From positions 135,100,001-135,164,000 of the forward strand of contig NW_024704742.1 in NCBI RefSeq assembly GCF_018977255.1: a DNA stretch of 64,000 nt, read 5' to 3'. A model generated the notes under the pieces. It was not told the origin of the DNA. It saw nothing but the letters and a program-made list of their open reading frames with translations, and did no database searches. The stretch's first letter is position 1; every line of letters starts with the position of its first letter. Both the position numbers and the translations under genes were made by a program. The stretch is from Callorhinchus milii. Its lineage: Eukaryota. This document shows, piece by piece, positions 49,160-49,278 of the stretch.

Positions 49160-49278
49160 CTCTAAGCAACGGTCTTGCCAACGCCGGGCCAGCATCTCCA
49201 GAAGGGGAGGTCTAAAGTTATCCTGTCCGAGATGATCAGGGAGCATGACACAATGCATGACAGTGAGCTGACTCCAGC
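49160..49278 (-). CDS. WDR7: WDR7 119-nt exon on the minus strand (inverted relative to the other exons)
   Basis: Reverse complement reads tacttccttag|GC TGG AGT CAG...TGC TTA GAG|gtgaga = (G)[39 protein letters not shown], the WDR7 segment following ...VNEG; phase 1 start fits. Confidence 0.92.

Follow-up and report, generated by a model that had tools for sequence, protein, structure and literature searches.

How can consecutive exons of one gene come to lie on opposite strands of a continuous stretch of DNA? The question is raised by the WDR7 gene of the elephant shark, Callorhinchus milii, in which an initial annotation of a 64-kb stretch (the whole of the DNA analysed here, hereafter the window) described three exons on the plus strand followed by one on the minus strand. 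The protein, also known as Rabconnectin-3 beta, is described as a V-ATPase assembly factor (PMC8264551). On the evidence set out below, we regard the opposite-strand exons, with high confidence, as an assembly artefact beside a gap, in an ordinary WDR7 gene.

WDR7 exons on two strands

Judged by its sequence, the window is the WDR7 locus of C. milii. The large exon at 30225-30985 is 100% identical to two C. milii WDR7 entries, while other species reach at most 91% among the matches listed. When a 1527-residue C. milii WDR7 model (P0124) was placed on the window, five exons were recovered (Table 1), which, spliced in gene order, encode 387 of 387 residues of the model without a single stop, keeping the orthologous residues in frame. 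The first minus exon shares 42 of 42 residues with the C. milii WDR7 models (E 3e-22), so its match is not chance; the end of its peptide is present in 115 of 120 homologues among those listed. Residues 1-712 of P0124 had no match anywhere in the window, and residues 1101-1527 had only a 16-residue chance match (E 0.56). Most likely, the five are ordinary consecutive exons of WDR7. Compared with vertebrate full-length WDR7 as it is described (PMC8264551), exons, protein order and intact splice sites are alike, and the difference lies in strand and block order only.

The 69-nt plus exon, which probably undergoes alternative splicing, is missing from 5 of the 7 C. milii protein models that join the plus and minus exons; some shark and ray isoforms lack it too.

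The initial annotation had correctly described the first minus exon as carrying intact splice sites in matching phase, and each of its four exons does have AG/GT ends and a fitting phase. It had also correctly seen no N gap between 41095 and 49160, the sole N runs of the window being 24423-24447 and 49937-49961. Its four exons stand, as does the absence of a gap between them, although it had overlooked a second minus exon (45653-45530) and a 25-N gap only 659 bases past the first one. Also absent from its picture of the locus were the second large exon, which lies in a 7-kb duplicate, and two flipped gap flanks.

Table 1. Features of the WDR7 locus of C. milii, in window coordinates; residues are those of model P0124
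Feature	Position	Strand	Remarks
7-kb duplicate of 26553-33555	17426-24422	+	2 mismatches and 14 gap letters in 7007 columns
Large WDR7 exon, second copy	21093-21853	+	Within the 7-kb duplicate
Gap 1, 25 N	24423-24447		N run
Right flank of gap 1, reverse-complemented in place	24448-26552		Gap-facing end is the natural neighbour of 26553
Block with three plus exons	26553-43036	+	T-rich on the plus strand; right end placed at about 42.8-43.04 kb
Large WDR7 exon	30225-30985	+	Residues 713-966; AG/GT ends
WDR7 exon	33524-33612	+	Residues 966-995; AG/GT ends
69-nt WDR7 exon	41027-41095	+	Residues 995-1019; AG/GT ends
64-bp exact copy of 49628-49691	42687-42750	+	Inside a low-copy hairpin-like repeat
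Block with two minus exons	43037-49936	-	Ends at gap 2; left end approximate
Second minus WDR7 exon (follows the first in the gene)	45653-45530	-	Residues 1059-1099; AG/GT ends
First minus WDR7 exon, coding	49278-49160	-	Residues 1019-1059; AG/GT ends; phase 1 to 0
SINE-like repeat just upstream of the acceptor of the first minus exon	49294-49627	-	94.6% identical to a copy at 32452-32764
Gap 2, 25 N	49937-49961		N run
Right flank of gap 2, reverse-complemented in place	49962-53083		Indel-rich; holds the LINE endonuclease domain on the minus strand
Reverse transcriptase domain of the same young LINE (RVT_1, PF00078)	53469-54695	+	E 3.7e-36; on the strand opposite to the endonuclease

Sequence flanking the two gaps

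Both gaps are runs of 25 N, a length that we take to be the mark of an over-filled gap. The rearranged minus block is bounded by one of these runs (49937-49961), and at both gaps the right flank is flipped. For each flipped flank the natural partner of the gap-facing end is visible in another copy; at gap 1, the natural order is seen intact in the copy at 17245-19346. The inner joins of both flanks are blunt, with 0-1 shared bases and no N. To the left of gap 2 the same pattern recurs, in that the exon due first lies nearest the gap, and we infer that the minus block is flipped relative to the block on its left. The absence of an N gap at the strand change, noted in the initial annotation, is real, yet it is not a sign of a real rearrangement, since the two other flipped flanks also join their neighbours without a gap.

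Over 1927 columns, the flipped right flank of gap 2 has 27 private indel letters, and the two other copies have 3 each; beyond 53084, the two copies are set apart by 4 gap letters over 878 columns. Within this flank lies the endonuclease domain, on the minus strand (PF03372, E 7e-14), of a young LINE, pieces of which are found around both gaps. The endonuclease frame is cut off at the N run and picks up again at 53084, but in the copy it is unbroken across 25676|25677; 49962-53083 is thus reversed in place. LINEs can undergo 5' inversion by twin priming. This mechanism was considered for 49962-53083 and rejected, as the flipped part includes non-LINE flank.

Over 49962-55724 and 24448-28475, the young LINE, with its endonuclease and reverse transcriptase, was found beside a truncated copy about 99% alike, the LINE and the truncated copy each being followed by the same 177-bp segment. 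The LINE is possibly a polymorphic insertion in the intron preceding the large exon.

The 7-kb duplicate stops at gap 1, inside the exon that starts at residue 966, and is likely the other haplotype. The duplicate copies differ by indels more than by substitutions. Two substitutions set the left copy apart from both other copies, and it is without the full-length LINE, which makes a LINE present in one haplotype a plausible cause of a break in the assembly.

The left flank of gap 1 is off-pattern. Here, 15405-16050 repeats 55720-56365, and the sequence after it is that from 56920 downwards, in reverse; the joins 15404|15405 and 16050|16051 each have 2-3 shared bases. This misfit to the flip pattern counts against the artefact model. 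The block at 15405-24422 looks like the other haplotype. The flank may be a further chimera; alternatively, it may represent a real inversion allele, about 40 kb long and including the five exons, which would even then be co-linear with one another. The same flank contains a 646-bp inverted duplicate (15405-16050 and 16606-17249).

Position of the strand change

Sense strands of introns are T-rich, and we calculated the A/T skew of the introns with repeats and exons masked. The skew was -0.081 at 19347-24422, -0.087 at 28476-33555 and -0.061 at 33556-43036, and it was +0.060 at 1-15192 and +0.057 at 43037-49936; each block follows the strand of its own exons. At 56921-64000 the skew was +0.030 (z 1.2), which is not significant and counts against the polarity picture of the artefact model. 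The contrast was reached in 0 of 5000 block permutations. The cumulative skew has its minimum at 42787 (42177-42888 within 15 units), which puts the break near 42.8 kb, and the left flank shares the polarity of the minus exons. Skew alone cannot tell an artefact from a recent real inversion, and counts of repeat orientation in the window gave no orientation of the blocks. The break does fall within 41096-49159, as had been proposed from the exons, and the second minus exon narrows this interval to 41096-45529; the breakpoint suggested at the time, 42660, lies near the position of about 42.8-43.04 kb mapped here. A 3' fragment of a repeat, presumably CR1-like, starts abruptly at the putative breakpoint (43038-43230).

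The assembly probably gives the 7-kb stretch beside gap 2 as the reverse complement relative to its neighbour. In the animal, base ~43036 would then be followed by the reverse complement starting near 49936, and this join would leave the five exons co-linear and spliced in cis. Four sequencing runs contain 70-81% of sampled words, and contigs of three of these and of one run guessed to be RNA (X5) were placed on 33000-49936, depth being one figure per contig. In X1, a depth of 9.31 was found at 42874-42883 and again at 49700; in X3, a depth of 8.84 was found at 42874-42883, 42948 and 49700. X2 and X5 had no cover at 42878. Pairwise comparison of the depth values below 10 that were listed gave no tie in 218 pairs, a tie having a chance of about 0.002-0.003 for each pair. 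The tie in 2 of 4 runs suggests that about 42.9 and 49.7 kb adjoin; it is supportive, not decisive, and carries no orientation.

End distances in X3 describe one piece at 42752-43036 and a second that includes at least 49605-49795. They are most simply read as a contig that reaches 43036 and then turns back, from near 49936, into the SINE-like repeat. This reading takes the field 'from_end' as the end of the aligned piece; taken literally, the contig would be 287 letters long and could not hold both places. The depth tie would equally suit a deletion that joins 43036 to 49605, or an inversion joined at 49605, yet either would cut the continuous SINE-like copy 23 bases from its end, and both were set aside. 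Among 15 of 5933 joints and the 32 pieces listed, none spans 42348-43662 and none crosses the predicted join; the joint and loose-end tables were filled by repeat-to-repeat rows. X5 covers introns, and nothing was seen in it on a splice join.

The window carries four one-base deletions relative to 3 or 4 of the 4 runs (34367, 35511, 41214 and 41489, within 33.2-42.3 kb), and none common to 3 or 4 runs was found in about 3.5 kb of listed minus-block pieces. These deletions are likely residual long-read errors, and as they lie in the plus block, either block may be the unpolished, gap-filled one.

Small repeats surround the break. The 64-bp copy at 49628-49691 abuts the 5' end of the repeat at 49294-49627, which we take to be SINE-like, and X3 seems to be without two identical copies. 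A low-copy, MITE-like repeat with inverted arms occurs at 42660-42790, 4180-4256, 62591-62700 and 43394-43428, its copies being about 80-87% alike. Under the predicted join, the two 64-bp copies are inverted and about 530 bases apart, an arrangement that would suit a local template switch. We did not adopt the 64-bp repeat itself as the breakpoint or as a target-site duplication, given that its 3' half runs on into a dispersed repeat and that the X3 contig appears to cross the copy at 49628 unbroken.

Such repeats could also speak for a private, complex rearranged allele of WDR7, in which the exons truly face each other and which would be a null beside a normal allele. The 64-bp exact copy and the inverted repeat of 17-20 bp at 42660-42770 resemble what is found at repair junctions, as do the few shared bases at 15404|15405 and 16050|16051; moreover, no gap lies at the strand change and two haplotypes seem to be present. 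However, the inverted repeat belongs to a dispersed family, the indels in the flipped right flank are of sequencing type, and three gap-adjacent blocks are alike in having their natural partner at the N run, for which there is no biological reason. We consider a private allele very unlikely.

Protein models and the origin of the arrangement

Nine C. milii WDR7 models were compared. In 7 of the 9, a plus exon is joined to the first minus exon, and 4 of these 7 include six residues translated from the intron behind 33612, which indicates that they were built from genomic DNA with both exons on one strand. Judged by their accession types, the 7 models presumably stem from an older C. milii assembly. 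Independent annotation of the same species is thus co-linear in 7 of 9 models, in 4 of them via intron read-through. The other two, both from RefSeq, cover residues 1-712 (XP_042191928.1) and 1020-1527 (XP_042187899.1) and contain none of the three plus exons, so that the gene is split exactly at the strand change. Both sit on a record of 139,202,109 bases. The second of them begins at the first minus exon and reaches the end of the protein, which places the downstream exons on the strand of the minus exons on that record. Together with the skew of the left flank, this C-terminal model suggests that the minus exons keep the true polarity of the gene and that the three plus exons are misplaced. 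Among the best 120 of 140 matches, no short C. milii transcript-derived protein across the junction exceeded 74% identity over the full region, a result that speaks neither for nor against the join.

These models also bear on the proposal that the locus is a real partial duplicate or pseudogene, with an intact WDR7 elsewhere in the genome. The large exon is indeed present twice; against this, the five exons show no damage and match the full-length model exactly, and depth in repeat-free bins is similar across 33000-49936. In addition, of the 8 cluster members examined, the two on the 139-Mb record are complementary halves, neither of them full length. We judge a partial duplicate to be highly improbable. 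The rearranged allele or partial duplicate put forward by the initial annotation is hence disfavoured by the gap-flank pattern, the intact exons and the complementary model halves.

A further possibility is that the arrangement is fixed in the species and that WDR7 mRNA is trans-spliced from opposite-strand transcripts, as for mod(mdg4) of Drosophila. The two cases are alike in that exons of one protein are annotated on opposite strands (PMC4387717, PMC13490949, PMC12692577). In mod(mdg4), as described, it is alternative 3' exons that lie on the opposite strand; they have separate promoters, and there are conserved intron motifs (PMC4387717). In WDR7, in contrast, the exons concerned are internal to a single reading frame, lie beside a gap, and are co-linear in other C. 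milii models. The 13-nt U1-binding core of mod(mdg4) had no match in the intron at 41096-49159, a weak test, as this is an insect motif; in the whole window, the same insect motif had one match with 2 mismatches, at 63126, against 2.2 expected. Intact splice sites and phase would suit trans-splicing, as would the skew of each block following its own exon strand, and both fit an artefact equally. With the ends of the gene apparently on the minus strand, two trans-splicing events would be needed. Evidence on whether the arrangement is fixed points the other way: the genome-built models of the same species join the exons co-linearly, and the depth tie, indirectly, points to a different adjacency in two other animals. 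We give a fixed, trans-spliced arrangement almost no credence. The initial annotation had likewise ranked trans-splicing as the least likely reading, in agreement with the co-linear models and the absent intron motif. If WDR7 were truly scrambled, with its full-length mRNA rebuilt by double trans-splicing, vertebrates would have an equivalent of mod(mdg4), and this in a housekeeping gene that is conserved; we hold the odds of this to be vanishingly small.

A contig misjoin, the first option of the initial annotation, is instead favoured by the flipped flanks, the duplicate, the co-linear models and the flip in skew. In this model of the artefact, WDR7 would run on the minus strand of the window, and the plus block would belong between gap 2 and the right-hand LINE. 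Scaffolding would have broken where one haplotype carries a young LINE, and the flanks would then have been extended and mis-oriented by long-read gap filling.

The published long-read assembly of C. milii, as its description goes, has a longest scaffold of 139.2 Mb, was built with FALCON, Quiver and Pilon, and HiRise, a single round of gap filling by PBJelly being the final step given, and contains 69.3 kb of gaps over 2104 joins; its authors noted duplicate heterozygous contigs (PMC8302630). The mean gap per join calculated from these figures is 33 bases, while fresh HiRise joins in another genome are described as 100-N gaps (PMC6240028, PMC7872254). The 139.2-Mb scaffold and the gap sizes tie the split RefSeq models to the gap-filled assembly. 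In PBJelly, a gap is described as at least 25 N (PMC3504050). Over-filled gaps, as portrayed in the PBJelly literature (PMC3504050, PMC9635638, PMC8848313), share with this locus a two-sided extension without closure, false gene duplication, and a link to misjoins and inversions in the input scaffold. Unlike in this window, the over-filling portrayed in those accounts has no reverse-orientation flanks, and no report of PBJelly flanks reversed in place was among the papers listed in our literature searches.

WDR7 of C. milii is thus probably an ordinary, intact gene, and most likely there is no biological novelty in its opposed exons. In the newer RefSeq annotation, the gene appears as two, and residues 713-1019 are missing. 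More generally, duplication or reversal can affect kilobases of sequence beside 25-N gaps, with an inner join that carries no N, and antisense exons, inversions and gene losses within about 20 kb of such gaps in C. milii therefore need read support.
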